A DNA stretch of 27,348 nucleotides from a virus. Its lineage: Duplodnaviria > Caudoviricetes. A model generated the notes under the pieces. The model did no database searches. It was not told the DNA's origin and saw only the letters and a list, made by a program, of their open reading frames with translations. The DNA is taken from IMG/VR virus record IMGVR_UViG_3300029823_000012, positions 1-27,348 of that record; one strand, 5' to 3'. Below are positions 3 to 27,160 of the stretch, one piece after another. Position 1 is the stretch's first letter. Each line of letters begins with the position of its first letter. The position numbers and the translations under genes were made by a program.

Positions 3-59
3 CCAGTATTTTTAACAGACGGAGAAAACATAGCAGTTATTTTGCCTATAAGATATTAA
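3..59 (+). CDS. 3' end of a hypothetical protein (partial)
   Basis: Frame 3 is open from the window edge: PVFLTDGENIAVILPIRY*. Confidence 0.5.
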   Translation, partial: PVFLTDGENIAVILPIRY

Positions 60-4231: not shown

Positions 4232-4232
4232 C

Positions 4233-4267: not shown

Positions 4268-4294
4268 ATAAATGTTAAATTAGAGGTGCTATGT

Positions 4295-6756: not shown

Positions 6757-6760
6757 TTAT

Positions 6761-6863: not shown

Positions 6864-6878
6864 ATAAATATAAAATAT

Positions 6879-8464: not shown

Positions 8465-8468
8465 TAAG

Positions 8469-8486
8469 ATAGAATGAGAATTTGCT
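8469..8486 (+). repeat. Junction site S1
   Basis: TAAG-ATAGAA-TGAGAA-TTTGCT right after stop 8464. Confidence 0.6.
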
Positions 8487-8511
8487 TCGATATAGAAAGG
8501 AAATGATTTTT

Positions 8512-9249
8512 ATAAAATACGTTGGCAGTAAAAACAGAATTTCTAAAGAGATAGTACCTATTATTCAAAAATGTATTGATGAGCATGATATTCATACATA
8601 CTTTGAACCATTCGTTGGTGGTGCAAATATGATTGATAAGATTAAGTGCAATAGGTGTATTGGAAATGACATTAATGAGTATCTTATCGCATTACTGAAA
8701 GCAGTACAGAGTGGATGGAATCCATTAGAATCAGTTACTATGACAAAAGAGTTTTATAATAATGTTAAAGACAACAAGGATAAATATCCTAAAGAGATCC
8801 TCGGTTTGTGCGGATTGTGCGCTACATATAATGCAAAGTGGTTTGGTGGATACGCTGGAATCGTCCATACGAAAATTGATACATATAGGAATTACTATGA
8901 AGAAGCAGTAAAGAATCTTTTGAAACAGAAAGATGATATTAAAGATATTAAATTTATTTCAACTGATTATCTTACATTAAACGAAACAAAGATGAAAAAT
9001 TGGGTTATCTATTGTGATCCACCTTATCAAGATACCACCAAGTACAATAACATTGGATTTGAATATGATGTATTTTGGCAATGGGTTAGAGATACTTCTA
9101 AAAACAATTTCGTATTCGTGTCAGAATACAATGCACCTAAAGATTTTAAGTGCGTATGGAGCAAGGTATTAACTACAACACTTGACAAAAGTAGTCGTAG
9201 TACGGCTACAGAAAAGTTGTTTACATATAATTCTAATATGATGAAATAA
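8512..9249 (+). CDS. Dam/D12-class N6-adenine DNA methyltransferase (probable ATA start; ORF track 8482)
   Basis: KYVGSKNR, EPFVGGAN (motif I), YCDPPY (motif IV), VSEY, EKLF. Confidence 0.9.
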   Translation: MKYVGSKNRISKEIVPIIQKCIDEHDIHTYFEPFVGGANMIDKIKCNRCIGNDINEYLIALLKAVQSGWNPLESVTMTKEFYNNVKDNKDKYPKEILGLCGLCATYNAKWFGGYAGIVHTKIDTYRNYYEEAVKNLLKQKDDIKDIKFISTDYLTLNETKMKNWVIYCDPPYQDTTKYNNIGFEYDVFWQWVRDTSKNNFVFVSEYNAPKDFKCVWSKVLTTTLDKSSRSTATEKLFTYNSNMMK

Positions 9250-9258
9250 GAGTTTTAT
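9241..9258 (+). repeat. Junction site S2
   Basis: G-ATGAAA-TAAGAG-TTTTAT-C; contains the MTase stop codon. Confidence 0.7.
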
Positions 9259-9300
9259 CTCATTGCAGACAATATTAAATCGTAAAGGAGCTAGACAAAA

Positions 9301-10113
9301 ATATTAAAACTAAATAATTTTTATATAGATGAATCAGTTAATTTTATGAAAAACAATATTCCAGATAATTTTGTAGATTTAACTGTTACATCTCCACCAT
9401 ATGATAATTTACGTACATATAAAGGCTTTGTATTTGATTATCAATCAATGTTAAAAGAATTATATAGAATTACCAAAGATGGTGGAGTAGTAGTTTGGGT
9501 GGTAAACGATGCTACTATAAAAGGTTCAGAAACATTAACATCGTTTAAGCAAGCAATATATGCAAAAGAAGAATGTGGATTTAATGTTCATGATACAATG
9601 ATTTATGAAAAAATTAATTATATCCCATTGACACATAATAGATACGAGCAATGTTTTGAATACATGTTTGTGTTCAGTAAAGGGAAACCAAAAACATTTA
9701 ATCCTATAATGATAGACTGTAAAACTAAGGGGAATAATACAGATAAGAGAACATTTTATCAAACAAACAAACAAGATAAACCAACAATAGGACATAATAA
9801 TGTTTGCGTAAAGAATCAAAAACAAAATAAAAATATATGGGAATTATCTACAAATAGTGGTTACAAAGGTCATCCGGCACCTTTTCCAGAACAATTAGCA
9901 AAAGATCATATTCTTTCGTGGAGCAATGAAGGAGATATTGTTTTTGATCCAATGTGTGGTTCAGGAACAACATGTAAAGAAGCATATCTTTTACATAGAA
10001 ATTTTATTGGTGTTGATATGAGTGAAGAATATATAAATAATATTTGTATTCCACGACTTGAACAATATGGGTGGAATAACATCAATAATATAAGCAAACA
10101 AAATTCTATATAA
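9301..10113 (+). CDS. Beta-class N4-cytosine/N6-adenine DNA methyltransferase (probable ATA start; ORF track 9346)
   Basis: DLTVTSPPY, HPAPFP, DPMCGSGTT. Confidence 0.92.
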   Translation: MLKLNNFYIDESVNFMKNNIPDNFVDLTVTSPPYDNLRTYKGFVFDYQSMLKELYRITKDGGVVVWVVNDATIKGSETLTSFKQAIYAKEECGFNVHDTMIYEKINYIPLTHNRYEQCFEYMFVFSKGKPKTFNPIMIDCKTKGNNTDKRTFYQTNKQDKPTIGHNNVCVKNQKQNKNIWELSTNSGYKGHPAPFPEQLAKDHILSWSNEGDIVFDPMCGSGTTCKEAYLLHRNFIGVDMSEEYINNICIPRLEQYGWNNINNISKQNSI

Positions 10114-10122
10114 TCGAATAGT

Positions 10123-10140
10123 ATAAAAGAAGTATTTCAT
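10123..10140 (+). repeat. Junction site S3
   Basis: ATAAAA-GAAGTA-TTTCAT-T between stop 10113 and the next RBS. Confidence 0.7.
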
Positions 10141-10173
10141 TGTGAATTTATTAAACAAGGAGAATGATCTAAA

Positions 10174-10740
10174 ATAGACAAAATTATTGCAAGTAGAATT
10201 ACAGGTGGTAATTCTGAATATGGTAGAGTAAAAAGTGATTTTTATCCAACACCATCAGAGGCTACACAAGTGCTAATTGACTTTTTAAAAGATAAACAGC
10301 TTATTGACAATACAATGACTGTTTGGGAACCAGCTTGTGGAGAAGGACATATGGTTAATGTCTTTACTGAAAATAATATTAAATGTATTGGAACAGATGT
10401 ACAAACTGGTACAGATTTTTTACAAACCAATATAGTACCTTGTCAGTGGATTATAACAAATCCTCCGTTCTCGGTTTCAGAACAATTTATTGAACAATGT
10501 CTGAAATTTAATAAACCATTTGCACTGTTACTTAAAACGCAATACTGGAATGCAAAGAAAAGATTACCTCTATTTAGAAAACATCAACCGCTATATATTT
10601 TACCTTTAACTTGGAGACCAGACTTTTTATTTAAAACAAGGGGAAAAGGTTCTCCATTGATGGATGTTATGTGGGTAGTGTGGAGTAAAAACCCTGCTGA
10701 AAATACATATTTTTATCCTGTTGAAAAACCAGTAAGATAA
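10174..10740 (+). CDS. Small NPPF-type N6-adenine DNA methyltransferase (probable ATA start; ORF track 10270)
   Basis: DFYPTP upstream of the ORF-track start, WEPACGEG (motif I), ITNPPF (motif IV). Confidence 0.88.
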   Translation: MDKIIASRITGGNSEYGRVKSDFYPTPSEATQVLIDFLKDKQLIDNTMTVWEPACGEGHMVNVFTENNIKCIGTDVQTGTDFLQTNIVPCQWIITNPPFSVSEQFIEQCLKFNKPFALLLKTQYWNAKKRLPLFRKHQPLYILPLTWRPDFLFKTRGKGSPLMDVMWVVWSKNPAENTYFYPVEKPVR

Positions 10741-10754
10741 ATCACGCATTCTAT
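10737..10754 (+). repeat. Junction site S4
   Basis: TAAG-ATAAAT-CACGCA-TTCTAT-T; contains the MTase stop codon. Confidence 0.65.
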
Positions 10755-10759
10755 TGTAT

Positions 10760-10801
10760 AAAAAATATCTGCTTACTGAAAGACTAATTCAATAAGCAGA
10801 T
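10760..10801 (-). terminator. Terminator hairpin with U-tract on the minus strand (may be bidirectional)
   Basis: A6 then ATCTGCTTACTGAA-N7-TTCAATAAGCAGAT. Confidence 0.7.
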
Positions 10802-10902
10802 CGCCTAGAGATAAGCAGGATGAATAGTAATATATTATGAAATAACAAATCTGTTTATGCTAATAGTTTAAATAAAATATTAAAAAATAATAGTTAAATC
10901 AC

Positions 10903-10931
10903 TTGACTTTAATATTTTTATGATCTATAAT
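10903..10931 (+). promoter_or_regulatory. sigmaA promoter of the replication-region operon with paired motifs
   Basis: TTGACT-17-TATAAT; AAAATATTAAAA at 10874, inverted copy at 10907-10918, another at 11019. Confidence 0.8.
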
Positions 10932-11055
10932 AGAATACAGAAAGAGAGATGAGAAAATGAAATATTATAAACTTTTGTAAATCAGGTAGCTTTAGAAAAT
11001 AGAAAAAAATAAATGATAAAAATATTAAAAAAATTAAAAAAGGAGATTAGACAAA

Positions 11056-11385
11056 ATGTTTAAATGTGGAATTTGTGGTAAGGAATTTAATAGTGTAGAG
11101 GATCGTATGAAACATGAAAGTCATTGTGTAGCAGTACGTAAGGAAGCTGAAAGGCAACATAAACTCGAAGTACAGAAAGCTGAATCAGAACGTAAAAAAG
11201 AAATGGCTAAAGCCGATTCAGAGCGGATTCAAAATGAATGTAAACAGTTGATCAAAGATGTTAAACATCACAGAAACACATATGGTGAAAATGTAAAATT
11301 TGATATGAATAAGATGGAAAACATTGATAGTCCATTGTATCTTCATATGTTAGATCCATTTTGGGAATTTGAACATATTTTTTAA
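11056..11385 (+). CDS. Zinc-finger (CxxC...HxxHC) coiled-coil hypothetical protein
   Basis: FKCGICGKEF.....RMKHESHC; AAGGAG RBS. Confidence 0.75.
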   Translation: MFKCGICGKEFNSVEDRMKHESHCVAVRKEAERQHKLEVQKAESERKKEMAKADSERIQNECKQLIKDVKHHRNTYGENVKFDMNKMENIDSPLYLHMLDPFWEFEHIF

Positions 11386-11401
11386 AGGAGTATATTATAT
11401 A

Positions 11402-11566
11402 ATGACATATGAAACACTTTTTAAGAACATTGAGAAGATGACAAAGGAATATGGAGAGAATGTTTCTAAGTCATTGAAAGATGTTCTAACAACTCTTAAA
11501 AATGAAGGTAAGACAGCAGATGAAGCAGTGAATTGGATTGGTGATAAGCTGAAGGAGATGAAGTAA
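11402..11566 (+). CDS. Hypothetical protein
   Basis: AAGGAG RBS supports ATG 11402 (ORF track 11369). Confidence 0.65.
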   Translation: MTYETLFKNIEKMTKEYGENVSKSLKDVLTTLKNEGKTADEAVNWIGDKLKEMK

Positions 11567-11568
11567 TT

Positions 11569-11808
11569 ATGTTCAGTAAAGATGAAAGTGCATTAATGCG
11601 ACTATTGATTAAATATGATCTTCCGTGGATTGCACGAGATGAAGATGAAAATCTGTGGGTATTTGAAGATAAACCAGAGAGAAGCAAAAATTATTTTATG
11701 GCAACTGGTGATTTTGGACATTTGCCAGACGTACTTTTTCCACAAATCACATGGGATAATAGTCCAATCGACTGTAAAGCGTATTTAGAAAGCGAAAGTA
11801 AAAATTAA
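11569..11808 (+). CDS. Hypothetical phage protein
   Basis: 79 aa, WIARDEDENLWVFEDKP block, AAGGAG RBS. Confidence 0.75.
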   Translation: MFSKDESALMRLLIKYDLPWIARDEDENLWVFEDKPERSKNYFMATGDFGHLPDVLFPQITWDNSPIDCKAYLESESKN

Positions 11809-11867
11809 TATACCATATATAGTATTACAATAATTATTATTATGCTACATAATGTGCCAAAAACAAG

Positions 11868-11885
11868 ATGAAATTGGGATTTCAT
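11868..11885 (+). repeat. Junction site S5 (perfect arms)
   Basis: AAG-ATGAAA-TTGGGA-TTTCAT-T. Confidence 0.75.
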
Positions 11886-11911
11886 TCGACGATTGAAAGG
11901 AAGTGACTTAT

Positions 11912-12127
11912 ATGAATTGTCCGATTTGCAATCAAAGCGATGAGATGATCTGGGATAAGACTTTTGGTGTATGGCGTTGTGATAGATGCAATAAAAGATT
12001 TGTAAATAAAGCTATTAAGGGGAAAGGAGATACCGCAGAAACATTTATAATTTTAAGAGGACACATTTTTGCGTGGTTTCAGAAGTTAATCAATAAACTT
12101 AAATGGGATATCTATAATAAGGAGTGA
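11912..12127 (+). CDS. Zinc-ribbon hypothetical protein
   Basis: CPIC...CDRC; AAAGGA RBS supports ATG 11912. Confidence 0.7.
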   Translation: MNCPICNQSDEMIWDKTFGVWRCDRCNKRFVNKAIKGKGDTAETFIILRGHIFAWFQKLINKLKWDIYNKE

Positions 12128-12348
12128 TACTCACGAAACATTTTAAACGTTTTCTACATACTATATTTCCTAAAATGTGTACTGCTAATTATCGTTGGAA
12201 TAATGATTGGCTTGAATGTGAGTGCGGTCAGAAGTTAGGTTTCAAATATTCAATACCAGATTATGACCTTACATATGATACTGATGAAGAAACTATTGTT
12301 TGTAAAGACAAAGAACCAGAAGAAAGAATGTTTTATTTATTAACTTAA
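12124..12348 (+). CDS. Hypothetical protein (start uncertain)
   Basis: 74-aa ORF; the GTG overlaps the RBS itself. Confidence 0.6.
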   Translation: MILTKHFKRFLHTIFPKMCTANYRWNNDWLECECGQKLGFKYSIPDYDLTYDTDEETIVCKDKEPEERMFYLLT

Positions 12349-12393
12349 TTGTTAGTATATAAAATATTAAAATTTAAAGGAGTATGATATTAT

Positions 12394-13497
12394 TTGAGTA
12401 ATTATCGTAATACGTTTCATTTCACTGGTGAAGTAAGTTTTCCAAAAGAGGATTCAAAAAATCCATTTTATGCACCTGTTCAAACAGATAAAATAGATGC
12501 AGTCAAAATGAATTTTGGAATTAAAGAATCAGACCACAATATGGGATTCGTTGAAATCTTTGGTTCTAAACGTGAACCGATACATACTATGAACACAGAT
12601 AATGAAGCAATTGATGTGGCATGGGATGATAGATTTAAACCAGAAGTAGTTAAAGAAGTAGCTAATTATCGTAAATATACGGTTGATTTGGGTAAAGAAT
12701 GTGGTGGACGATATGATTTCATTACACAGTATGATATGATTGAATTTTTGCATAATTATTTGCCACAATTTAAAGGTCGAGTATATGTAACAGGTCAGTT
12801 TTCTCGTCAACCTTATAAGGATAAATATTATAATCATTTTAGTGTAGAAAATGTTTATGGACTATCAGATGATGATACTAAACATAAAAATCGTCTTGGA
12901 GTAATGACAGATATTTTTTATAATAATAAATCATTAGATATGACAGATGTTAAAAATACAGGTAAAGCATATTTAAGTGGTTATATTAGTCAGTATATTT
13001 CTGCTGATAAAAAGAATGAATTTGTTCCTATGGATTTTGTATTTAATACAAAAGCATATGATATGAGCAATGAACATCAGAAAAAAGTATATGAATATAA
13101 GATGAATAATTTAAAACCAAAAGAAACAAAGATAGTACATATTCCGTGGGAATTGGTTATGTTGAATGGGGCAGAAGAGCAACCATTTGACGAGTCTACC
13201 CTTACTAATGCGCAGAAAGAACAGATTGCTCTTGGCCTTAGTACTGTAGATGATTTTAAGCCGAAAGGTTCTATTTTTGGTAATAATGTAAAAGAGTTTC
13301 GTTTGTTTAAACCAATTCTAAAAGGTGATTTTGCAGGAGGTATTGTAAAGGCAGATTATTCAGACAAAGATTTTCAGGATGCTATTTATGTACCCGCAAA
13401 AGATGAAAGTATTGTAGATATCGAAAAGCCAGATGAGGAATCAAAGAAAGATTGGACAGAAGATATGTCCGATTTAGATGATGAAAATTTATTCTAA
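12394..13497 (+). CDS. Putative single-stranded DNA-binding/replication protein (YorF-position gene)
   Basis: Beta-rich N-terminus, acidic tail ending DLDDENLF, first gene of the replication cluster; TTG start with AAGGAG. Confidence 0.55.
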   Translation: MSNYRNTFHFTGEVSFPKEDSKNPFYAPVQTDKIDAVKMNFGIKESDHNMGFVEIFGSKREPIHTMNTDNEAIDVAWDDRFKPEVVKEVANYRKYTVDLGKECGGRYDFITQYDMIEFLHNYLPQFKGRVYVTGQFSRQPYKDKYYNHFSVENVYGLSDDDTKHKNRLGVMTDIFYNNKSLDMTDVKNTGKAYLSGYISQYISADKKNEFVPMDFVFNTKAYDMSNEHQKKVYEYKMNNLKPKETKIVHIPWELVMLNGAEEQPFDESTLTNAQKEQIALGLSTVDDFKPKGSIFGNNVKEFRLFKPILKGDFAGGIVKADYSDKDFQDAIYVPAKDESIVDIEKPDEESKKDWTEDMSDLDDENLF

Positions 13498-13543
13498 TTT
13501 TTGAATTATATAACAATTAATTATTAAAAGGAGAAATGTAATA

Positions 13544-14668
13544 TTGAGTAGAAAATATGGTAAAGAAATTGAAGTTTCAATCAATCCATTGAGTTATTCT
13601 CTTGGACTTATTGGTGAAAGTGGTATTGGCAAGACTACAATTATAAAAGAATATTGTGAGAAGCTTGCTGGGCATGATGGGTATATCATGTTGGATATCG
13701 GTAAAGAAGATGGGCATAGAGCTATTAATGGCATTGTTTCCGCAGAAATTCCAGATTGGGATACATTTATTGATTTTTGCGATGATGTTATTGAAAATAA
13801 GACTACCGATTATAAAGATTTGAAAGTTATAGGACTTGATACATATGACCAGTTGGTTGAATTAGCCGAAGCAGAAGTAATTCGTATGCATAATCGAGAT
13901 AATCCTGATAAACGTGCTAATTCTATCAATGCAGCTTTTGGCGGTTTTGGTAAGGGTTCAGACAAGGCAGATGAGATTATCCTTAATAAACTGTGGGAAT
14001 TAAAAAAAGTTGGAGTACAGTTTATTATGATTGGACACGTTAAAAATCGTGAAGTTAATGATGTTATTACAGGTGATTCATATAGTATCGTTACAACAAA
14101 TATGACAGAACGTCATTTTAATGCTATTAAAACTAAACTTCAATTTCTTGGTGTTGCTTATATTGATAGAAAGATTATCAAAGAAAAAACAGGAAAGAAA
14201 GATATCAAAAATCACAAAGATATTTTGAAAAATAAAGTTTCAGAAGAAGCAAGGCGTATCTCTTTCCGTGATGATAATTATAGTATTGATAGTAAGTCAC
14301 GTTTTGCAGATATTGTAGATAACATTCCAATGGATGTAGATGAACTTATTAAAGCTATTAATGATGCAATTCTGGCAGAACACAATAAAGGAACAAAAAC
14401 CCTTGAAGATACGAAAAAGGATGATGAAGATAAAGAAAAAGAGACGGCTAAATTTGCAGCTAAATACGCTGAAAAAAAGAAAGAAACCAAAGTTGATACA
14501 GATGTAAATAAAAAATTAATTGCTACTATTCAGAAAAAATTTACAGTACAGTCTGCTGATGTAAAAAAGCAAGTTAAAACTATTATGGTTGATAATGGAT
14601 TTAGTTCTTTCCGTGATGAAAATATTCCAACACAGGCACTCCAAAAAATTGTTGATATATTGAAGTAA
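13544..14668 (+). CDS. AAA_24 / Sak4-like P-loop ATPase (YorG-like)
   Basis: Walker A GESGIGKTT, Walker B IGLDT, FGGFGKG, IGHVK, SKSRF. Confidence 0.8.
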   Translation: MSRKYGKEIEVSINPLSYSLGLIGESGIGKTTIIKEYCEKLAGHDGYIMLDIGKEDGHRAINGIVSAEIPDWDTFIDFCDDVIENKTTDYKDLKVIGLDTYDQLVELAEAEVIRMHNRDNPDKRANSINAAFGGFGKGSDKADEIILNKLWELKKVGVQFIMIGHVKNREVNDVITGDSYSIVTTNMTERHFNAIKTKLQFLGVAYIDRKIIKEKTGKKDIKNHKDILKNKVSEEARRISFRDDNYSIDSKSRFADIVDNIPMDVDELIKAINDAILAEHNKGTKTLEDTKKDDEDKEKETAKFAAKYAEKKKETKVDTDVNKKLIATIQKKFTVQSADVKKQVKTIMVDNGFSSFRDENIPTQALQKIVDILK

Positions 14669-14748
14669 TTTAATAAATCAATAAGAAAGTAAGATGATGA
14701 TAAATATGCTTGTATTATAATTTAATTTGAATGAAAGGAGGATTTTAT

Positions 14749-15252
14749 ATGGCTCGTAAAGTGAAATGTCAAGTAACTGGTGAATATGGTACATCAGATA
14801 CATTTTATAAAGCGAGTAATGGACATTATTATAAAAGTAAGGAAATATACGAACAAGATAAAAAGGATAAAAAATATTATTCTTTAATTAAAGACACAAT
14901 TTGTTTTGAATTTTTAGGATATCAAAAAGGTCAAAAATTTCCCACTACCTTAACAAAAAAGTTAAAAGAATTATCTTTTTATCCTAATGAAGTGATTTAT
15001 AAAACAATTCAAGATCAAAAAGAAAATATTGAATATTGGATTTCACATAAAGATTTTTCATCTGATTATGGAAAAATTGCTTATATATTTGCTATTATTA
15101 CTAATAATATTAATGATGTATATAGGAATTGGAAAATAAATCAACATCAACAAAAAAAACAAGAACAGTGGCAAGATGAACCAATTGAAATAATTAAATC
15201 TAAACAACATAAAAGTATTGATATTAGTAAATGGTTAGACGGAGATGATTGA
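14749..15252 (+). CDS. Hypothetical replication protein (YorH-position gene)
   Basis: AAGGAGG RBS, MARKVKC start, YIFAIITNNIND block; directly upstream of the helicase. Confidence 0.65.
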   Translation: MARKVKCQVTGEYGTSDTFYKASNGHYYKSKEIYEQDKKDKKYYSLIKDTICFEFLGYQKGQKFPTTLTKKLKELSFYPNEVIYKTIQDQKENIEYWISHKDFSSDYGKIAYIFAIITNNINDVYRNWKINQHQQKKQEQWQDEPIEIIKSKQHKSIDISKWLDGDD

Positions 15253-16716: not shown

Positions 16717-16732
16717 AAGAAGGTGACATAGT

Positions 16733-17764
16733 ATTGGTATTAACGTAAACCGTTTGACTGATTATTTAATTAATAATCATGATGCAGTTGAAACTATTTT
16801 AAACGATATTGGATTTACACATATTCGATATAATGCAGATAAACAAGAAATTCGTTTTAGTCGTAGAGAAGGTGGTAATCCAACTGCGGTTGTACTGTAT
16901 CTTAATACTATGTCATTTTATTGTTTTTCGACAAATCAACATGGAAATATTTATACATTGGTAATGCAACATAAAAATATTTCTTTCCCAATGTCATTAC
17001 AATATATTGCTAATGAATTAGGATTGTCACAACAGCAATTAGATTTAAAAACTCATTTACCATTTGGTGGATTTTATAAAAACATAATTAATTGCAATAT
17101 TGAACCTGAATGTCATTTAAAAACCTATGATAAATCAATTTTAAATCCTTATTTACATAAGTACAATATGATGTTTTTCAATGATGGTATTGATTTCCAA
17201 ACTCAAGAAGAATATCAAATAGGTTATGATCTCGATAGTGGCAGAATTACATTTCCTATATGGACATTAAATGGAGAATTATGTGGAATTATGGGACGTT
17301 TAAATGATACTAATTGTCCTAAAGAAAATCGTTGGTTACCTATTATTCCTTGTCAACGTAGTTTAACATTGAGTGCATATCATAGAAATTATAAATATAT
17401 ACAACAAAAAGGGTTAGCAATTATTTGTGAATCAGATAAAGCTCCTGCTCAAATGCATAGTTTTGGATGTAATATCGGAATAGGTACTTCTGGATGTCAT
17501 ATATCAAAAATTCAAGCTAAATATTTAAAAGGATTACGTGTCCCTCGTTTAGTAATAGCTTATGATGAGGGGTTAGAAGAAGAACAGGTAAGAGAAGAAA
17601 CTAAAAAATTAATTGTTAATACACCAATTTATAAAAATCATGTTGGATATGTATGGGATAGTGAAAATGAAATATTAAAAAAAGGAGAAAAACAATCTCC
17701 CACAGATGTTGGAAAAGAAAAATTTGCATATTTAATGAAAAAGAAAGTGAAGTGGTTATCATAG
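16733..17764 (+). CDS. DnaG-like primase (degenerate motifs; probable ATT start, ORF track 16754)
   Basis: RITFPIW..GELCGIMGR, TOPRIM-like IICESDK and IAYDEG, SPTDVG; follows the helicase. Confidence 0.75.
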   Translation: MGINVNRLTDYLINNHDAVETILNDIGFTHIRYNADKQEIRFSRREGGNPTAVVLYLNTMSFYCFSTNQHGNIYTLVMQHKNISFPMSLQYIANELGLSQQQLDLKTHLPFGGFYKNIINCNIEPECHLKTYDKSILNPYLHKYNMMFFNDGIDFQTQEEYQIGYDLDSGRITFPIWTLNGELCGIMGRLNDTNCPKENRWLPIIPCQRSLTLSAYHRNYKYIQQKGLAIICESDKAPAQMHSFGCNIGIGTSGCHISKIQAKYLKGLRVPRLVIAYDEGLEEEQVREETKKLIVNTPIYKNHVGYVWDSENEILKKGEKQSPTDVGKEKFAYLMKKKVKWLS

Positions 17765-18870: not shown

Positions 18871-18882
18871 AGGAGGGATTGC

Positions 18883-21800
18883 TTGCAAAATTATCACAAA
18901 CATACTTGTTATAGTAATATATATAATGCTGATTCTACGGCAACATATGAAGATTATATACATAGGTGTAAAGAATTAGGACATAAAGTAATAAGCAGTG
19001 TAGAACATGGTTGGCAATCAAATTACTATGTTCCTTTTACATTGGTTAAAGAGAATAACGATAAATATAAACAACTTTATGATGAACATAAAATTGATAA
19101 ACAGGAATATAAAAAGAATTTATTAAAGTTTGTTTTTGGGACAGAAGCATATTGGGTTAAAGATAGAGAAATAATTCAAAAGCATCAATATAGAACAAGT
19201 AAAGGGAAAATAGAAACAAAAGAATCAAAAGATAGAACAAACTGTCATATAGTTATTCTTGCAAAAAATGAAAACGGTAGAGAAGCAATTAATGATATAT
19301 TAGCAGAAGCAAATATATCAGGATATTATTTTAGACCACGTATTGATTTATCTTTAATTTTTAGTTTACCTAAAGATGATGTATTTATTACATCTGCATG
19401 TATTGCAGGATGGAAATACGATGATGCTGAAGATATATATTTGAAAATGCACAATTATTTTCAAGACAATTTTATGCTTGAAATTCAAAATCATAATACA
19501 GACGCACAAAAAATGTTAAATCAACGAATCAAAAACTTTGCCTATAAAAATGATATTCAAATGATTGTAGGATTAGATAGCCATTATATTTATCCAGAAC
19601 AAAGTGCAGATAGAGATTATTTGTTGGCGGCAAAAAATGTTCATTATGATGGCGAAGATAATTGGTATATGGATTATCCAGATGATAAAACAGTTATAAA
19701 ACGTTTTTTAGAACAAGGTGTTTTTAATGAACAAGAAATTTTAACAGCTATGAATAATACAGATATTTGTTTATCATTTGATGATTACTATGATAATAAA
19801 ATTTTTAAAAAAGATATTAAATTACCTACATTATATCCGGATAAAACACAAAAAGAAAAAAATGAAATTTATGGACGATTAATTACAAAGAAATTTAAAG
19901 AATATATGAAAAATGTTCCCAAAGAATACTATCAAGAATATTTTGATGGTGTACAGATGGAAGTTAATACTTATAAAGATACAGGTATGGTTGACTATCC
20001 ACTTATGGATTATCAAATTATGAAAAGAGGTAAAGAATTAGGAGGTGTTTTAACAAAAACAGGACGTGGATCAGCTCCTTCATATTTTACAAATACGTTG
20101 TGTGGATTTAGTTCTATTGATAGATTCCAATCACCTATTAAATTATATCCTGAACGTTTTATCAGTGAAAGCCGTATCAAAGAAACAAAGTCATTACCTG
20201 ATATTGATATGAATGTATCAGACCAAAGTATTTTTGAAGAAGCTCAAAAAGAAGTTTTAGGAGAAAATCATGCTTATCCTATGATTGCTTTTGGTACATT
20301 AAAAAAGAAAGCTGCTTTCAAGTTATATGCCAGAGCAAAAAATATGGATTTTGATTTAGCTAATAAAATTTCAGAGCAGTTAAGCCAATATGATGAAGCA
20401 TACAAATTTGCTTCAGATGATGAAAAAGAAAATATGAGTATCTATGATTATGTGGATAAACAATATCATGAATATCTCGATAAAAGCAAAAATTATTTGG
20501 GAATTGTCGTAGATAAGAAAAAAGCTCCTTGTAGCTATTTACTGTATAATGGTGATATTCGCAAAGAAATTGGTTTAATCAAATGTAAAAGTAGTTCAAC
20601 ACATAAAGAATATATTACGACAGTTATAGATGGAGCAGTAGCAGAAAATTATAAGTTTCTTAAAAATGACTTACTAAAAGTTGATGTTGTACTTCTTATA
20701 GACAAAATATGTAAACGAATTGGTATTAAGCAACCTACCGTGCCTGAACTAACAAAAATTATTGATGGTAATAAAAAAGTATGGGACATTTATGCTAATG
20801 GATATACTATGGGAATAAATCAATGTGAAAAAGAATCGGCAACTAAAAAACTTATGAAATACAAACCACAAAATATTTCAGAGTTAGCAGCATGGGTAGC
20901 AGCTATTAGACCTGCTTTTCGTTCTATGTATGGTAAATTTGCTAAACGAGAAAAATTTGAGTATGGAATTAAAGCATTTGATAAATTACTCCAAACACCT
21001 CAATTACCTTATTCGTTTATGCTTTATCAGGAACAAACTATGAATACTTTACACTATGCAGGATTTCCTATGGATCAATGTTATGGTATTATTAAAGCTA
21101 TTGCAAAAAAACATCCTGAAAAAGTAAAGCCATTAAAAGATACATTTATTAATGGTGATGAGCAGCAACATATCGTTGGATTTAAACAACGTATTATTGA
21201 AGACGATAAAGTATCACAAGAACAAGCATCTGAATATGCTAAAAAAGTATGGCAGATTATAGAGGATAATGCAGGGTATGGATTTAATTCAAGTCATAGT
21301 TATTCTGTAGCTCTTGATAGTTTATACGGAGCATGGTTAAAGGCATATTATCCATATGAATTTTACGAAGTTATGCTTCAGCACTATTCAGATAAAGGAC
21401 AAAAAGATAAGGTTTCGTTATTTAAACAAGAAATGACAAAAGCATTTGGAATAACAGAAGGAAAATATAAATTTGGCAATGATAATAGACAGTTTACATC
21501 TGATAAGAAAAATCATGTAATTAATCCATCATTAGTATCTATAAAAGCATTAAACCAACGTATTTCTAATGAACTTTATGATTTATCACAACAAAAGCAA
21601 TATTCTTCATTTTTTGATTTATTACAAGATATTAGTTCTAAAACTTCTGTTAATTCTAAACAGCTTGATATTTTAGTGAAATTAGATTATTTTTGTGATT
21701 TTGGACAGATAAATGAATTACTTGATAAAATTCAAATTTACAACAATTTAGCAAACAAAAAACAAATTAAACATGATGACTTGGTAAAGTACAATTTATC

Positions 21801-22242
21801 AGAAGAAGTTATGAAACAATTATCTACGAAAGTAACAGAAAAATTATATAAAGGATTTGATTGGAAACAGCTTGTACAATATCAGTGGAAAAATTTAAAA
21901 ATACGCCCAACAACTTTATTGGATAAGATTCATTATGAATTAGACTGTTTAGGATATGTTCAAACGATTGATAAAAATATAGCTCCTATATATGCTGTTG
22001 TAACAAATATAGATGGAAAGTATAAAAACAAAAAAGTAACTTTATATCGTATTCATGATGGTACAAATGATATAGTCAAGGTAAAAGCTAAGACATTGGA
22101 AACCGCACCATTAAATGTCGGTGATATGATTAAAACGATTGAAGTTAATGAAGAAAAGAAGTGGGGTAAAGATTCAGAGGGCAATTTTTATAGGAAAGAT
22201 GAAACAGAATTAGTATTAAAAAAATATTCATTTGTGAGGTGA
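18883..22242 (+). CDS. dnaE: DNA polymerase III alpha subunit, phage-type
   Basis: PHP domain (HKHTCYS, EHG, GTEAY, DSHY), GRGSA, PDIDMN, KNDLL, YQEQ, YGFNSSHS. Confidence 0.95.
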   Translation: MQNYHKHTCYSNIYNADSTATYEDYIHRCKELGHKVISSVEHGWQSNYYVPFTLVKENNDKYKQLYDEHKIDKQEYKKNLLKFVFGTEAYWVKDREIIQKHQYRTSKGKIETKESKDRTNCHIVILAKNENGREAINDILAEANISGYYFRPRIDLSLIFSLPKDDVFITSACIAGWKYDDAEDIYLKMHNYFQDNFMLEIQNHNTDAQKMLNQRIKNFAYKNDIQMIVGLDSHYIYPEQSADRDYLLAAKNVHYDGEDNWYMDYPDDKTVIKRFLEQGVFNEQEILTAMNNTDICLSFDDYYDNKIFKKDIKLPTLYPDKTQKEKNEIYGRLITKKFKEYMKNVPKEYYQEYFDGVQMEVNTYKDTGMVDYPLMDYQIMKRGKELGGVLTKTGRGSAPSYFTNTLCGFSSIDRFQSPIKLYPERFISESRIKETKSLPDIDMNVSDQSIFEEAQKEVLGENHAYPMIAFGTLKKKAAFKLYARAKNMDFDLANKISEQLSQYDEAYKFASDDEKENMSIYDYVDKQYHEYLDKSKNYLGIVVDKKKAPCSYLLYNGDIRKEIGLIKCKSSSTHKEYITTVIDGAVAENYKFLKNDLLKVDVVLLIDKICKRIGIKQPTVPELTKIIDGNKKVWDIYANGYTMGINQCEKESATKKLMKYKPQNISELAAWVAAIRPAFRSMYGKFAKREKFEYGIKAFDKLLQTPQLPYSFMLYQEQTMNTLHYAGFPMDQCYGIIKAIAKKHPEKVKPLKDTFINGDEQQHIVGFKQRIIEDDKVSQEQASEYAKKVWQIIEDNAGYGFNSSHSYSVALDSLYGAWLKAYYPYEFYEVMLQHYSDKGQKDKVSLFKQEMTKAFGITEGKYKFGNDNRQFTSDKKNHVINPSLVSIKALNQRISNELYDLSQQKQYSSFFDLLQDISSKTSVNSKQLDILVKLDYFCDFGQINELLDKIQIYNNLANKKQIKHDDLVKYNLSEEVMKQLSTKVTEKLYKGFDWKQLVQYQWKNLKIRPTTLLDKIHYELDCLGYVQTIDKNIAPIYAVVTNIDGKYKNKKVTLYRIHDGTNDIVKVKAKTLETAPLNVGDMIKTIEVNEEKKWGKDSEGNFYRKDETELVLKKYSFVR

Positions 22243-22247
22243 TTTTG

Positions 22248-22778
22248 ATTTTAGATTTATATAAATATACTGATACAGAAAAGAAACAATTAATAAAATC
22301 TATAGGAATATGGATAGACACACGCGAGAAAGTGAATCAGCATATTATAGACTGGTTTGATAGGCATAAAATTGAATATAAAACAAAAGCATTATCAAAT
22401 GGAGATTATTCTTTTTACATATCTGCTAACCCTGATTTAAATATAAATCGTTGTTTAGATTTTAGCCATAAAATTATGATTGAACGTAAAGCATCTTTAG
22501 ATGAATTAAGTGGTAACCTAACGCAGAATCGTGATAGGTTTGAAAAGGAAATGTCAATTTATCAAGGTAAAAAATATTTATTGATTGAAAATTCAAGTTA
22601 TGCAGATATTGTGAATCAAAATTATAAAACTAAATTTAATCCAAAGTCATATCTTGGTAGTTTACATAGTTTTAACCAAAAGTATAATCTTGAAATAGTT
22701 TTTATGCCAGACAACCAATATAGCGGTTTATGGATTTATGAAACGTTGGTACATTATTTTACAAATATAATAAGATGA
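22248..22778 (+). CDS. ERCC4/XPF-family nuclease (probable ATT start; ORF track 22239)
   Basis: IDTREK, GDYS, IERKASLDEL, LLIE. Confidence 0.88.
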   Translation: MLDLYKYTDTEKKQLIKSIGIWIDTREKVNQHIIDWFDRHKIEYKTKALSNGDYSFYISANPDLNINRCLDFSHKIMIERKASLDELSGNLTQNRDRFEKEMSIYQGKKYLLIENSSYADIVNQNYKTKFNPKSYLGSLHSFNQKYNLEIVFMPDNQYSGLWIYETLVHYFTNIIR

Positions 22779-22792
22779 AATATTGATTTAAT
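22775..22792 (+). repeat. Junction site S6
   Basis: TAAG-ATGAAA-TATTGA-TTTAAT-T; contains the ERCC4 stop codon. Confidence 0.7.
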
Positions 22793-22824
22793 TCAATAAT
22801 ATTAAAAATAAAGGAGTAATGATT

Positions 22825-23517
22825 ATACAATATTTTGGTGGAAAAGCTAAGATAGCTAAATATATAGTTTCTTTTCTTGAATCACATAGAAAAGAAAATC
22901 AAATATATATAGAACCATTTGTGGGTGGAGCAAATATTGTTTCTAAGATGACAGACAAACGGTATGCTTATGATTTGAACGAATACCTTATAGAGATGTA
23001 CAAAGGAGTACAAAATGGCTATGAGTTACCTGATACATTATCAGAAGAACAATATCAATATATAAAAAGTCATAAAAATGAGAATAAAGCACTTACAGGC
23101 TTCGTAGGATTTGGATGTAGTTTTTCAGGAAAATGGTTTGGTGGTTATGCAAGAGACCATAATGGAAGAAATTATTGTAAAAATGCTAAAAATTCAATAA
23201 TAAAACAGTTTCCATATATAAAAGATGTGATATTTGAATGTAAAGATTATAAAATATTAAATCCACATGATTGTTTGATTTATTGTGACCCACCGTATCA
23301 AGGTACTACAAAATATACAGGAGTTCCAGATTTTAATTCTGATGAATTTTGGGATGTTATGCGACGATGGTCAATAGATAATGATGTTTATATTTCAGAA
23401 TACAATGCGCCAAATGATTTTATAAGTGTTTTAACTATACCAACAAAAACAGATATTAGAGATACCAATAATAAAAATATTAAAAGAATTGAAAAGTTAT
23501 TTACATATAGCAAATGA
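22825..23517 (+). CDS. Dam/D12-class N6-adenine DNA methyltransferase, paralogue of 8512..9249 (probable ATA start; ORF track 22819)
   Basis: QYFGGK, EPFVGGAN, KWFGGYA, YCDPPY, ISEY, EKLF. Confidence 0.9.
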   Translation: MQYFGGKAKIAKYIVSFLESHRKENQIYIEPFVGGANIVSKMTDKRYAYDLNEYLIEMYKGVQNGYELPDTLSEEQYQYIKSHKNENKALTGFVGFGCSFSGKWFGGYARDHNGRNYCKNAKNSIIKQFPYIKDVIFECKDYKILNPHDCLIYCDPPYQGTTKYTGVPDFNSDEFWDVMRRWSIDNDVYISEYNAPNDFISVLTIPTKTDIRDTNNKNIKRIEKLFTYSK

Positions 23518-23531
23518 AACAGTTCTTTCAG
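23514..23531 (+). repeat. Junction site S7
   Basis: ATGAAA-CAGTTC-TTTCAG-T; contains the MTase stop codon. Confidence 0.65.
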
Positions 23532-23547
23532 TATAAAAGGAGAATTT

Positions 23548-23678
23548 ATGGACGAAAAGCAATTATTCATTGTGCGAATTGTAAGGTAAATTATGATATG
23601 TTGAAATTACTTCTTGGAGAAGAAAATTATAAGTGGTATATTGATAAATTCCAAATTAAGGAGAGTGACAAACATTAA
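23548..23678 (+). pseudogene. Small ORF, apparently frameshifted near codon 4
   Basis: AAGGAG + ATG gives 13 aa; the -1 frame reads AIIHCANCKVNYDMLKLLLGEENYKWYIDKFQIKESDKH* and ends on the ligase start. Confidence 0.35.
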
Positions 23679-24999
23679 TACTATTGAAAGTGTAAAATCG
23701 ATTTTTGATAAATTGCAGTCAACTAATTCAAAAAAAGGTAAAGAACAGATTCTCAAAGAAAACCAGAACAATGAACTGTTTACAGATATTCTAAAATTTT
23801 TACTTGATTCACATATTATTACAGGATTAAGCGAAAAGAAAATCAATAAGAATATAGGTGTTTTACCAAATGTTAATTATAGTGAAAAACTAAATAATGG
23901 CTATTCCACAACTGATATTCGTAATTTGTTTGAATATATCAAAAAGAATAATACAGGAAAAGATATTGATATTTCAGTTTGTGAAAGTTATTTTGCTAAT
24001 TTTGATGCAGAGACAAGATTCTTTATTAAAGATATTCTTACAAAGTCATTGAAATTAGGCATTGATACAAAGACAGTCAACAAAGTATATGGCAATAATT
24101 TTATTCCAACATGGGAAGTGCAGCAAGCATATAGTATTGATAAATATCCTTTGAAGAAAGGAGAATGGTTTTCGCTAAGTGAAAAGCTAAATGGTAATAG
24201 AGGTACATATTATAAGGGTAAAATTATTAGCAGACAAGGAAAAGAATTTACAGGATTAAATCACATTGTCAATGATATTAAAGTGTTACTTGGGGATAAA
24301 GCTGATAGCATTGTTCTTGACGGAGAACTTAGACGTAAAAATATTGATGGTATTTCAGATAATGAAAATTTTAGAATCGGTACTGGAATCCTAAATTCTG
24401 ATGACGCAGATAAATCTTGCATTAATTTCACTATGTATGACGTACTGTCTGTTGAAGAGTTTAATAAAGGTATTGGAACTATTAAATATTGTAAACGTAG
24501 GGAAATACTCAATAATATGCGAGATACTATTCGAGAAAAACATTTGAATAATATTGCAATTGTAGATATGTTTTATGAAGGCACAGATCAGACACAGATT
24601 TCAAAATATCTTGACAAGATGGTTTCAGAAGATAAAGAAGGTTGTATGCTCGATAAAGATGTGGTGTACAAATGTAAACGTCATAGTGGAATTCTGAAAG
24701 TAAAGAGATTTTATACTTGTGACCTGAAGATTCTAAGACTTGAAGAGGGGTCTGGTAGACTGTCTGGTACGCTAGGTGCATTTGTAGTAGATTATAAAGG
24801 CAATGAACTCAATGTAGGTAGCGGTATGTCAGATGAACAGCGTACAGAATTCTGGAATAAATGTGATGAATTAGTTGGCAGAGTCATTGAAGTAAAATAC
24901 AAAGAAGAGAGCAATGATAAAACTACAGGCAATGTGAGTTTACAATTTCCGATTTTTATTAGTCTCAGAGAAGTTGGAAAAGAAGTAAGTTACTCATAA
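23674..24999 (+). CDS. ATP-dependent DNA ligase (probable ATT start; ORF track 23614)
   Basis: SEKLNGNR (KxD/NG), VLDGEL, EGCM, ILKVK, VGSG, SLQFPIF. Confidence 0.92.
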   Translation: MNTIESVKSIFDKLQSTNSKKGKEQILKENQNNELFTDILKFLLDSHIITGLSEKKINKNIGVLPNVNYSEKLNNGYSTTDIRNLFEYIKKNNTGKDIDISVCESYFANFDAETRFFIKDILTKSLKLGIDTKTVNKVYGNNFIPTWEVQQAYSIDKYPLKKGEWFSLSEKLNGNRGTYYKGKIISRQGKEFTGLNHIVNDIKVLLGDKADSIVLDGELRRKNIDGISDNENFRIGTGILNSDDADKSCINFTMYDVLSVEEFNKGIGTIKYCKRREILNNMRDTIREKHLNNIAIVDMFYEGTDQTQISKYLDKMVSEDKEGCMLDKDVVYKCKRHSGILKVKRFYTCDLKILRLEEGSGRLSGTLGAFVVDYKGNELNVGSGMSDEQRTEFWNKCDELVGRVIEVKYKEESNDKTTGNVSLQFPIFISLREVGKEVSYS

Positions 25000-25028
25000 T
25001 ACAATACTAAAAATATTAAACACAGTAC

Positions 25029-25057
25029 TTGACTTTTAATATTTTAACAGCTATAAT
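25029..25057 (+). promoter_or_regulatory. sigmaA promoter with paired motifs, near copy of the 10903 promoter
   Basis: TTGACT-17-TATAAT; AAAATATTAAA at 25010, inverted TTTTAATATTTT at 25034-25045. Confidence 0.8.
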
Positions 25058-25081
25058 AGGATATAGAAAGTTGAGGGAAAT

Positions 25082-25627
25082 ATGAATACATATTTTATTA
25101 GCGATTTACATTTTGGTCATTACAATATTATTCGATTTGATAATAGGCCGTTCAAAACAATTGAAGAAATGGATAATACACTAATTACTAATTGGAACGA
25201 TATAATTAATAACGATGATACTGTTTATATCTTAGGTGATGTATCTTGGTATAATCCAGAACAAACTTATAATATTTTGAAACAGCTTAAAGGAAAGAAA
25301 ATTTTAATTAAAGGTAATCATGATAATATTGTTAAAGACAAAAGATGCAGAGAACAGTTTATTACAATTAAAGATTATGATGAAATTTATTTAAATAATC
25401 AGCTTATCATTTTGAGTCATTATCCTATTATGTATTGGAAAAATCAGTGGCATGGTACAATTCATTTATATGGTCACGTTCATGTAACAAGAGATTATGA
25501 CCATTTATTGAATTACATTCAGAACGAACATAAAATAGGAAATCCGTGTAAAATGTATAATGTTGGATGTATGATTGATTATATGAACTACAAACCAAGA
25601 ATGTTAGAAGAAATTATTAAAAACTAA
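25082..25627 (+). CDS. Calcineurin-like metallophosphoesterase
   Basis: SDLHFGH, LGD, GNHD, SHYP, GHVH motifs. Confidence 0.92.
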   Translation: MNTYFISDLHFGHYNIIRFDNRPFKTIEEMDNTLITNWNDIINNDDTVYILGDVSWYNPEQTYNILKQLKGKKILIKGNHDNIVKDKRCREQFITIKDYDEIYLNNQLIILSHYPIMYWKNQWHGTIHLYGHVHVTRDYDHLLNYIQNEHKIGNPCKMYNVGCMIDYMNYKPRMLEEIIKN

Positions 25628-25631
25628 TATA

Positions 25632-25649
25632 ATCAAACTGTGATTTTAT
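25632..25649 (+). repeat. Junction site S8
   Basis: ATCAAA-CTGTGA-TTTTAT-T right after stop 25627. Confidence 0.65.
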
Positions 25650-25666
25650 TCGATGAGGTGATTAAA

Positions 25667-25852
25667 ATAAAAATTGATATTACAGAACAGGAATTGAAAG
25701 CAATAAGCGATTGTATTTACATGGCTGCAAGGGAAGGATTTTATGCTTATTATGATGGTTCAAGAGATCAGATTGAAAATGTATTATCTGGATTTTATAA
25801 AAAGTTAGGATATAATGATAATACAATCAAAGATATTTGTGATGAGCAGTAA
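25667..25852 (+). CDS. Hypothetical protein (probable ATA start; ORF track 25640)
   Basis: GAGGTG RBS 6 nt before ATA; bracketed by S8 and S9. Confidence 0.65.
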   Translation: MKIDITEQELKAISDCIYMAAREGFYAYYDGSRDQIENVLSGFYKKLGYNDNTIKDICDEQ

Positions 25853-25853
25853 G

Positions 25854-25871
25854 ATAAATCGATTGTTTTAT
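25854..25871 (+). repeat. Junction site S9
   Basis: TAAG-ATAAAT-CGATTG-TTTTAT-T. Confidence 0.7.
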
Positions 25872-25985
25872 TGGAAAGGAATTTTATGTTTACAAATAAT
25901 GACTTATATGATTTAGATTCAGCACAATCTAAAGTTAATCAATAGTAATAATATTAAACTTAAATTAAAGGAGATGTATCTATTT

Positions 25986-26330
25986 ATGAGGTCAATTAGT
26001 CAAATGATTTGGAGTATCAATCATCGCCCATCTGGAACACATGGGTATATCAACATCAAAAATATTCGAGTGTCTAATGATTTTCTTGCAACCACACCTA
26101 AAGTATGGAAGGTCAGAGAATACTATCGACGTTATTTTCAGAATGGTTTTATTGATGAACCTGTTACAGTAAGAAGGATTAAGAATTCTAAGAACGTTGA
26201 ACTTGTAGATGGGTACATCAGATATCTAATCTGTATGACAAATATTTATAGGTTCCAAGAAGAATTCAATTGTACATACGGTCAAGTGCCAAGTCGGTTT
26301 AAGTACGTTCCAATTATGTGGGCAGAGTAA
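25986..26330 (+). CDS. Small ParB-like-fold hypothetical protein (ORF track start 25974)
   Basis: EPVTVR...LVDGYIRYL resembles the ParB/Srx DGxxR motif. Confidence 0.6.
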   Translation: MRSISQMIWSINHRPSGTHGYINIKNIRVSNDFLATTPKVWKVREYYRRYFQNGFIDEPVTVRRIKNSKNVELVDGYIRYLICMTNIYRFQEEFNCTYGQVPSRFKYVPIMWAE

Positions 26331-26342
26331 AGGAGCAGTAAA

Positions 26343-26483
26343 ATGGATAATCACTTTTTAGATTGTAAAACATGCAAAAATCAATGTTGTGATCATGGAT
26401 GTTTTTATGAAAGATCATTCTGTAGAACATTAATTTACGACATAAAGAAAAAGATTATGATTAAATTAGGTTATGATTATTAA
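26343..26483 (+). CDS. Small Cys-rich protein (46 aa), not in ORF track
   Basis: AAGGAG RBS, MDNHFLDCKTCKNQCCDHGCFYERSFCRTLIYDIKKKIMIKLGYDY*. Confidence 0.55.
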   Translation: MDNHFLDCKTCKNQCCDHGCFYERSFCRTLIYDIKKKIMIKLGYDY

Positions 26484-26541
26484 AATCGAAGCAAATGATA
26501 GCTCTATTCAATAATAATCAAATATTAAAAGGAAGATATAT

Positions 26542-26760
26542 ATGGAAAAGTTTAAGTCTAATTATAAGGTTTATGATAAAGATGGTAAAGAAGTAACTAA
26601 TTGTTTTGTACTTAGACCAGATATTGATGAAGTAGCATTGACTGCACTTAAAACATATGCAGGAGAAACGAATAATGATGAACTTGCTTATTCTTTAAAT
26701 AGTTGGCTTGATGATCTTGAATGGAATTTTGCACAAGAATATATTGGAGAAGATATTTAA
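26542..26760 (+). CDS. Hypothetical phage protein
   Basis: 72 aa, FVLRPD.D..A..AL..YA block, AAGGA RBS. Confidence 0.75.
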   Translation: MEKFKSNYKVYDKDGKEVTNCFVLRPDIDEVALTALKTYAGETNNDELAYSLNSWLDDLEWNFAQEYIGEDI

Positions 26761-26764
26761 TAAG

Positions 26765-26782
26765 ATAGAACCCGAATTTGAT
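26765..26782 (+). repeat. Junction site S10
   Basis: TAAG-ATAGAA-CCCGAA-TTTGAT-T. Confidence 0.65.
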
Positions 26783-26814
26783 TTAAATTTGATTCTATGG
26801 AAGAAGGAAATATT

Positions 26815-27117
26815 ATGACAGAAAAGAAACCATGTCCTCATTGTGGAAGTACAAACATTATATCATGGCATTGGTTATCTCCATATCACACAGATAAAAA
26901 ATCAGCATATAGTGGAAATTATATAAATCCATATGATCACAATAAAATGTATGCAGATATTGCATGTCATGATTGTCATTTTGGAAGCTCAAATGGAGAA
27001 TTTTCAGAAATAGCAATTAAAGAAAATAAAAATCAAACATGGAAAGAAGCAAGAGAAATTGCTGGATTAAAAGCAGAAGAAAAAGCTATTGAAGCATGGA
27101 ACAAAAGAATTCACTAA
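26815..27117 (+). CDS. Lar-family restriction alleviation protein
   Basis: KPCPHCGS...CHDC...AIEAWNKR; GAAGGA RBS supports ATG 26815. Confidence 0.8.
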   Translation: MTEKKPCPHCGSTNIISWHWLSPYHTDKKSAYSGNYINPYDHNKMYADIACHDCHFGSSNGEFSEIAIKENKNQTWKEAREIAGLKAEEKAIEAWNKRIH

Positions 27118-27118
27118 G

Positions 27119-27136
27119 ATAAAAGATGAGTTTTAT
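27119..27136 (+). repeat. Junction site S11 (perfect arms)
   Basis: TAAG-ATAAAA-GATGAG-TTTTAT-T. Confidence 0.75.
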
Positions 27137-27160
27137 TTTATAAAAAGGAGTGATATAATC

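Follow-up and report, generated by a model that had tools for sequence, protein, structure and literature searches.

The elements reported here resemble those of several described systems. According to the accessible part of one account (PMC6449649), the pdif/dif modules of Acinetobacter plasmids, acted upon by host XerC/XerD, comprise many sites per replicon, each 28 bp long with two 11-bp arms around a variable 6-bp centre, and accessory genes occur between these sites in varying contexts, with recombination taking place between replicons. Xer/dif systems, including that of B. subtilis (CodV/RipX), have the same 11-6-11 layout and exchange strands in the 6-bp centre, a single chromosomal site serving for dimer resolution (PMC5357621, accessible part). 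In T4-type phages, the PeSL cassettes are repeats of a promoter and a terminator at the junctions of hyperplastic regions, where they are gene-exchange breakpoints, recombine with one another and give mini-circles (PMC2839356, accessible part), and in integron arrays an attC site lies beside the stop codon of small accessory genes (PMC9024848, accessible part). We have analysed comparable elements in a phage fragment, positions 1 to 27,348 of the virus record IMGVR_UViG_3300029823_000012 (27.3 kb, 29% GC, every gene on the + strand), which constitutes the early region of a temperate, SPbeta-like phage and is called the window hereafter, meaning the whole stretch at its full length. Eleven sites with inverted arms around a 6-bp spacer occur in the window, and related phages carry 17-49 mutually different ones each; their conservation covers roughly 10-6-10 positions, the dif consensus having been used for the comparison of arms. 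On balance, these sites are likely to be crossover points at which a phage-encoded tyrosine recombinase (YomM is a possible candidate) would join genomes only if the 6-bp spacers match, a reading that draws on sequence comparison.

The eleven sites are real, every core and spacer having been found on re-checking where the initial annotation of this DNA had placed it. All are on the + strand, at 8469..8486 (spacer TGAGAA, upstream of a gene for what is, from its sequence, a Dam-like methyltransferase), 9241..9258 (TAAGAG), 10123..10140 (GAAGTA), 10737..10754 (CACGCA, with a terminator-like hairpin and a promoter-like site downstream), 11868..11885 (TTGGGA), 22775..22792 (TATTGA, where the conserved replication block ends and the relatives diverge), 23514..23531 (CAGTTC, the weakest of the set, yet one within which contigs break), 25632..25649 (CTGTGA, read as CTGCGA in the two relatives G001 and G002), 25854..25871 (CGATTG), 26765..26782 (CCCGAA, upstream of a Lar-like gene) and 27119..27136 (GATGAG). 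Ten of them start within -8 to +10 nucleotides of the end of a stop codon, the exception being 11868, which lies 60 nucleotides behind one, and ten have a word resembling a ribosome-binding site 5-27 nucleotides downstream of the core, so that the placement described initially holds on both counts. The AAG left flank does occur in seven of the eleven sites; the orientation that it suggests is partly due to the overlapping TAA stop codon. The element recurs as claimed, with only 4/11 sites matching the proposed consensus exactly, and neighbouring sites bracket a single gene in six of ten pairs, the other pairs bracketing 2, 3, 3 and 10 genes, including the ligase gene and promoter-like sites. 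The claim that no site lies at a junction inside the core replication operon was wrong: a further perfect copy occurs at an internal junction of that operon (14731..14748, + strand), with a spacer, GGAGGA, that is itself the ribosome-binding site and may be there by coincidence. A site with this GGAGGA spacer is present in two distant phages, at 14731-14748 of the window and at G048:C1:19004.

The sites are enriched over background. Eleven positions of the window exceeded the threshold of a matrix trained on 12 sites of G001 (a 70-kb relative, 97% identical to the window over the replication block) whose spacers are absent from the window, compared with 0.7 on average, and never more than 4, in 200 codon-block shuffles; the independence of this matrix is partial, as the G001 sites were first located with a matrix built from the initially annotated ones. 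It placed 10/11 sites within the top 12 of about 27,300 window positions, with 23514 at rank 66. The spacer length of 6 is specific, G001 having 39 matches at this length and 9-18 at lengths 2-5 and 7-11, and an N6-specific peak, with inverted arms around a fixed centre, was found in the window family and in 14 named phages. The geometry of a tyrosine-recombinase core, proposed from the letters of the window, is thus borne out, although the 6-bp arms of that proposal turn out to belong to an imperfect 10-6-10 palindrome (29 sites from the window and G001, with consensus T-A-A-G-A-T-V-R-A-W N6 T-T-T-B-A-T-T-Y-N-R). No site coincides with any of the three best promoter matches on the + strand or of the six terminator matches, the DNA folding energy at sites equals background, and no covariation of the arms was found (5 position pairs, 31 sites). 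As a separate observation, spacers avoid a first A or a last T (46/384, symmetrised, all site sets), and the register of the A-tract arms is therefore unambiguous.

In Bacillus phage SPbeta, eleven of its relatives and phages of other genera, the element A/T-T-R-AAA-N6-TTT-Y-A-A/T has 17-49 copies each, the SPbeta form (ATAAAA-N6-TTTTAW) lying at stop codons and before ribosome-binding sites. We called breakpoints in the 12 Spbetavirus genomes without regard to sites, and 209/1,625 fell at cores, with peaks at +17..19 and -1..+1, compared with 6-29 in seven shifted windows; the suggestion that the sites are exchange points, and that breakpoints between relatives would fall inside them, is upheld in these genomes. 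Gene junctions are broken in 188 of 228 cases when they hold a site and in 296 of 875 when they do not, a difference that holds when gap length is matched, and breaks on both sides of the junction occur in 74/228 and 49/875 cases, respectively. The 375 strict sites comprise 65 spacers, none of which is repeated within a genome; 25 of the 34 commonest spacers occur in at least two left contexts and at least two right contexts, and the spacer order is the same in 11/12 genomes (phage L1 has one relaxed duplicate spacer). When pairs of sites sharing one flank were compared, the spacer was identical in 130/147 shared-left and 119/145 shared-right pairs (null expectation 0.4%), and only 9/147 and 9/145 pairs differed at two or more spacer bases, so that a tolerance for mismatched spacers of the Tn916 kind, invoked initially, finds no support here. 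The first arm base differs in 1/147 shared-left and 30/145 shared-right pairs, and the last arm base in 41/147 and 12/145. Arm variants thus follow their own flank, and the switch of ancestry therefore lies between the arms. Between SPbeta and phi3Ts, 7/26 ends of long identical tracts are at sites, and SPbeta and phi3T have six addresses (sites with a given spacer) in common without other homology, those with the spacers TGCATA, AGACTG, GATAGT, TATTCC, TTCAAT and GTTTTA.

Spacers are also kept between genera. PBC2 and pW2, which belong to two genera and are alignable over 43% at 72%, share 8/23 spacers exactly (null 0.5), and the flanks are unrelated at six of these eight. Near-identical spacers (at most one base apart) are depleted within genomes (seven lineages, 18 observed and 38.8 expected). 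Neither pattern would be predicted for a neutral operator gap. Where both flanks are homologous, the spacer has no clear excess of conservation over them (0.036 compared with 0.036-0.074), which we take as neutral. In pW2, phi116 and PBC2, perfect sites also recur every 6-12 kb or so through conserved regions. A de novo palindrome search of 22 clades of distant relatives, covering loci longer than 8 kb of the set L018-L103, found TAAAA-N6-TTTTA only in two Acutalibacteraceae clades.

Contigs from the window's own population also break at its sites. G001 has about 22 sites, nearly all at accessory junctions, and seven of the eleven window spacers recur there in the same order (six exact, one with a single change); around TAAGAG, GAAGTA and CGATTG, the DNA on both sides of the core is unrelated between the window and G001. 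A module running from site to site (9241..10140, + strand), with an N6/N4 methyltransferase gene at 9346-10113, is 99% identical between the window and the relative L006, the replication genes of the two being 73% identical, and the DNA to the right of its second site, at 10123, differs three ways among the window, L006 and G001. In G001 the same two spacers, TAAGAG and GAAGTA, enclose a TnpB-like gene, and an insertion-sequence (IS) insertion may have contributed to this exchange. Two independent studies each yielded a contig that covers exactly 9241-10141, from site to site, beginning at the first base of the core. In four further runs, 8/18 piece ends that continue into unrelated DNA fall in a core (a hand count over the 32 of 158 matches that are listed; cores make up 2.6% of the stretch), and, also among the matches listed, one contig holds 25631-25871, again from site to site, in a foreign setting. 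Contig depth is higher over the methyltransferase module than over the core; it was not used, since depth does not measure copy number. Among the matches listed for the viral motif scan, no further close kin appeared.

Taken together, these patterns fit spacer-matched crossover by a tyrosine recombinase between whole phage genomes, and not integron-style capture or Tn916-type mismatch tolerance. One recombinase monomer would bind each arm and strands would be exchanged across the 6-bp centre in the manner of Xer, for which reason identity of the spacer would be needed. Unique spacers would guard a genome against deletion of its own genes. Between co-resident phages, a crossover at a single address would give an in-register hybrid, and crossovers at two addresses would swap the genes between them (methyltransferases, the Lar-like gene, small genes of no assigned function). 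The enzyme would be a YomM-type recombinase encoded outside the window, a step that we propose with less confidence. In engineered heterospecific lox and FRT sites, spacer identity decides pairing and flanked segments are exchanged in register; the phage sites would be a natural, genome-wide version of these, whereas in Tn916-type coupling sequences exchange occurs between non-matching 6-bp overlaps. A wider proposal, which we advance tentatively and hold to be possible rather than probable, is that SPbeta-like phages of Firmicutes possess a dedicated system of genome-wide exchange, in which YomM would act on 20-50 orthogonal, ordered sites, so that accessory genes would be swapped in register between co-resident phages at addresses kept across genera, as site-specific phage sex. 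The mosaic genomes of phages are usually ascribed to illegitimate joins that arise by chance and then undergo selection; in the present case a large group, to which SPbeta, the model prophage of B. subtilis 168, belongs, would have fixed, labelled joints, and the candidate is a named enzyme of unknown role. If true, this would explain the fast turnover of methyltransferase and counter-defence genes, and dozens of orthogonal recombination sites would be available as a natural set.

Such a system would differ from its closest described counterparts. In contrast to pdif modules, the sites are phage-borne, their arms are near-symmetric A-tracts (AAA-N6-TTT at the inner bases) and not a XerC arm paired with a different XerD arm, no spacer is used twice in a genome and the order is fixed across genera, and the candidate enzyme is phage-encoded. 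Compared with PeSLs, the sites are neither promoters nor hairpins and avoid matches within a genome. The view taken initially that the system had not been described stands, no earlier description having been found in the literature searched, in which subscription papers are mostly not covered; that search gave no paper on yomM with SPbeta, and motif strings gave nothing related. The accessible part of a study of SPbeta relatives mentions neither YomM nor palindromes (bioRxiv 2021.11.22.469490).

No active recombinase was found in the window, as had been noted from the outset. The window does encode an MrpR/SroF-like repressor (4286..5344, + strand; PF22822, E=4e-15) with a recombinase fold, and this protein is an unlikely candidate for the enzyme: in alignment with YopR/SroF it lacks the catalytic Arg and the HxxR motif, and MrpR does not track the sites. 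A PDB sequence search with it gave no match. YopP was rejected; it is present in all Spbetavirus genomes, but neither the window nor G001, whose sro-like operon is included, gave a match to it. The candidate that tracks the motif, with one clear exception discussed below, is YomM. This tyrosine recombinase belongs to the morphogenesis operon, its gene lying just ahead of the tape-measure gene, and we regard its link to the sites as a lead and not as a result. YomM is present in all 12 Spbetavirus genomes and in phi116, Perkons, PBC2, pW2, BcoS-136 and FADO, and in PBC2, pW2, BcoS-136 and FADO the gene and the sites occur together. Aligned copies show R-K-H-x-x-R/K-H/W-Y, the residues being R, K, H, K, H and Y in the 12 Spbetavirus genomes and phi116 and the full R-K-HxxR-H/W-Y in the relatives. 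Among 21 near-complete virus records, motif matches (both strands) number 6-95 in the seven whose YomM-like gene is intact and 0-4 in the other 14, which include one record with a frameshifted YomM-like copy and no motif match. This copy (L403, at about 118200-119300 of G016:C1) lies in a 175-kb phage record, its coding sequence divided between two frames.

A number of observations weigh against the proposal that the sites are YomM crossover points. SPbeta YomM itself has a Lys in place of the second catalytic Arg, Lactococcus phage PMBT69 has an intact YomM-like gene and only two motif matches, and three of the seven YomM-positive records have only 6-8 matches. The profile of the 21 records is biased, six having come from the motif scan and some having been used to build the profile hidden Markov model, and the YomM-negative records are richer in GC and fall in about five clades. 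Neither the window nor G001 yielded a YomM, G001 stopping short of the tape-measure gene. As for the breakpoints, 87% of those in the Bacillus genomes are away from sites, the 12 genomes are related and their counts are not independent events, clades with neither YomM nor sites are mosaic as well (154 and 184 breakpoints), and seven ends of blocks shared by the window and G001 are at site-free junctions or in genes (10872, 11582, 12114, 12337, 24945, 26494 and 27244). The depletion of near-identical spacers is significant alone in only 2/7 lineages, and the first gain of sites by a new gene is left without explanation. Four genomes of laboratory phi3T-SPbeta hybrids crossed over in identical tracts of 1.4-18 kb, one of them in a site-free interval of 39 bp. 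A preprint on three of the four, in its accessible part, reports one 'nonhomologous' junction following yosA (bioRxiv 2020.05.06.055103), where we find that SPbeta and phi3Ts have only the TATTCC core in common; this junction would be predicted to fall in the TATTCC site at SPbeta 116414, some 90 bp downstream of yosA. We do not consider that these hybrids discriminate between the readings.

Rather unlikely, in our estimation, is the leading alternative, in which the arms are bound by a non-catalytic dimeric protein (a transcription roadblock or DNA organiser) and the 18-bp cores are used in annealing by Sak4 or RecA. Cores that were the sole homology between unrelated genes would also keep their spacers matched and unique, a Sak4-like single-strand annealing protein is encoded in the window (13544..14668, + strand; phrog_124, E=5e-22), the crossover in the 39-bp interval shows that short homology without a site can suffice, the position between stop codon and ribosome-binding site suits a roadblock, the shuffling of PeSLs in T4-type phages (PMC2839356, accessible part) is a precedent, and the spacer is hardly more conserved than homologous flanks. 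This account has to contend with arm mismatches that segregate with the flanks, leaving as few as 12-15 AT-rich matching bases, with exact spacers that persist between genera despite unrelated flanks, with a longer repeat of the same phages, SPBRE, that is not a hotspot (see below), and with the lack of any candidate protein that follows the motif more closely than a recombinase does. Unlikely as well is that YomM resolves or builds multimers of sister genomes before packaging at whichever addresses match, inter-phage swapping being a by-product; the chemistry is that of YomM crossover at matched spacers with another purpose, and the probabilities of the two overlap. The location of YomM in the morphogenesis operon speaks for this, as do the occurrence of sites within the replication operon and in late regions that are conserved and the spacing of site clusters, whose evenness exceeds chance in pW2 and phi116 (P about 0.01 each), although not significantly in 5/7 genomes. 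Resolution, moreover, takes one site and not 20-50 among small accessory genes, and many related phages lack both YomM and sites.

The integron-like capture or shuffling put forward in the initial annotation, with single genes leaving and entering as circles and being reordered, is very improbable and largely refuted. It would account for the six of ten neighbouring pairs that enclose one gene as site, ribosome-binding site, reading frame, stop codon and site, and for two neighbouring sites in the relative L005 whose spacers are one base apart and whose right flanks are identical. Insertion of a circle would duplicate a spacer, however, and the 375 strict sites include no duplicate (the relaxed one of phage L1 apart); the order of sites is fixed, there is neither attC box nor hairpin near a site (the single match to an attC pattern in the window is at 4192-4280), and no joint closing a circle from site to site was seen in contigs among the matches listed, contigs being apt to drop rare forms. 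The phage sites also differ from integrons in requiring a spacer match and in having no IntI and no R/L boxes; a scan of 39 open reading frames of the window, itself a fragment, gave no integrase besides the MrpR-like protein. Least probable of all is that the sites are operators of the MrpR/SroF-like repressor or RNA hairpins. That repressor has a recombinase fold and is encoded in the window, and SPbeta itself offers a parallel in SPBRE, a repeated element of the same phage group with a binder of recombinase fold. SPbeta MrpR, however, binds SPBRE in promoters (PMC10516654, accessible part), and SroF, catalytically dead, binds it as a monomer at an extended, asymmetric box of 24-26 bp (bioRxiv 2025.11.27.690993, accessible part). 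From 7/7 published peak-region sequences we derived SPBRE as an asymmetric motif around AATATGTATA, unlike the palindrome; the published SPbeta peaks already point away from the sites, and only 6/63 copies of this longer repeat are broken, compared with 152/252 strict sites. Four records with MrpR have at most four motif matches and one (G049) has 95 matches and no MrpR match, and hairpins are contradicted by arms that do not covary and by folding energies at background.

On the repressor side of the window, genes for MazF-like, MrpR-like and GmrSD_N proteins (3857-6756) form a set similar to the SPbeta sro repressor operon, with its own MazF and no YopP match, and a tRNA-Gln(TTG) lies at 6879-6953. 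The replication genes follow in the order Sak4-like recombinase, DnaB helicase, primase, exonuclease, PolIII alpha, ERCC4 nuclease and ligase, and on both sides of this block are four methyltransferases, the Lar-like gene and small genes without assigned function. With the helicase as query, SPbeta-like phages of Bacillus and other Firmicutes were retrieved, and the ligase-based and metagenome scans gave no useful new relative. The phage was found in metagenomes of 8 studies (fermentation, landfill, manure), its closest labelled relative being a contig of a Clostridiaceae metagenome-assembled genome.

Some further features of the window and its relatives deserve mention. At 27245-27348, a hairpin-bearing end, which we take to be IS200/IS605-like, splits a methyltransferase-like gene directly after TTTAT, the frame being intact (313 aa) in G001. 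Three TnpB-like genes occur in the G001 set (L013:3041-4252, L014 at about 6030-7110 and L012:7708-8787, all on the - strand) with no adjoining TnpA seen, and two of the three end in the same short hairpin immediately before a site, which would put the site at the position of the guide sequence. Behind the tail-fibre genes of a close relative is a 354-aa frame (L409:9487-10548), presumably resembling a diversity-generating reverse transcriptase, and G001 has no such frame at that place. Finally, a second repeat, AATATTAAA, has 20 copies on the + strand of the window and 2 on the - strand (including those at 3800, 5419, 6808, 10876, 12363, 22798, 25012, 25950 and 26521); 13/20 are intergenic, intergenic DNA making up 13% of the window, and they are often just before promoter-like sites or ribosome-binding sites and near several site-free breakpoints. 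This repeat is a candidate operator of the window's MrpR-like protein.

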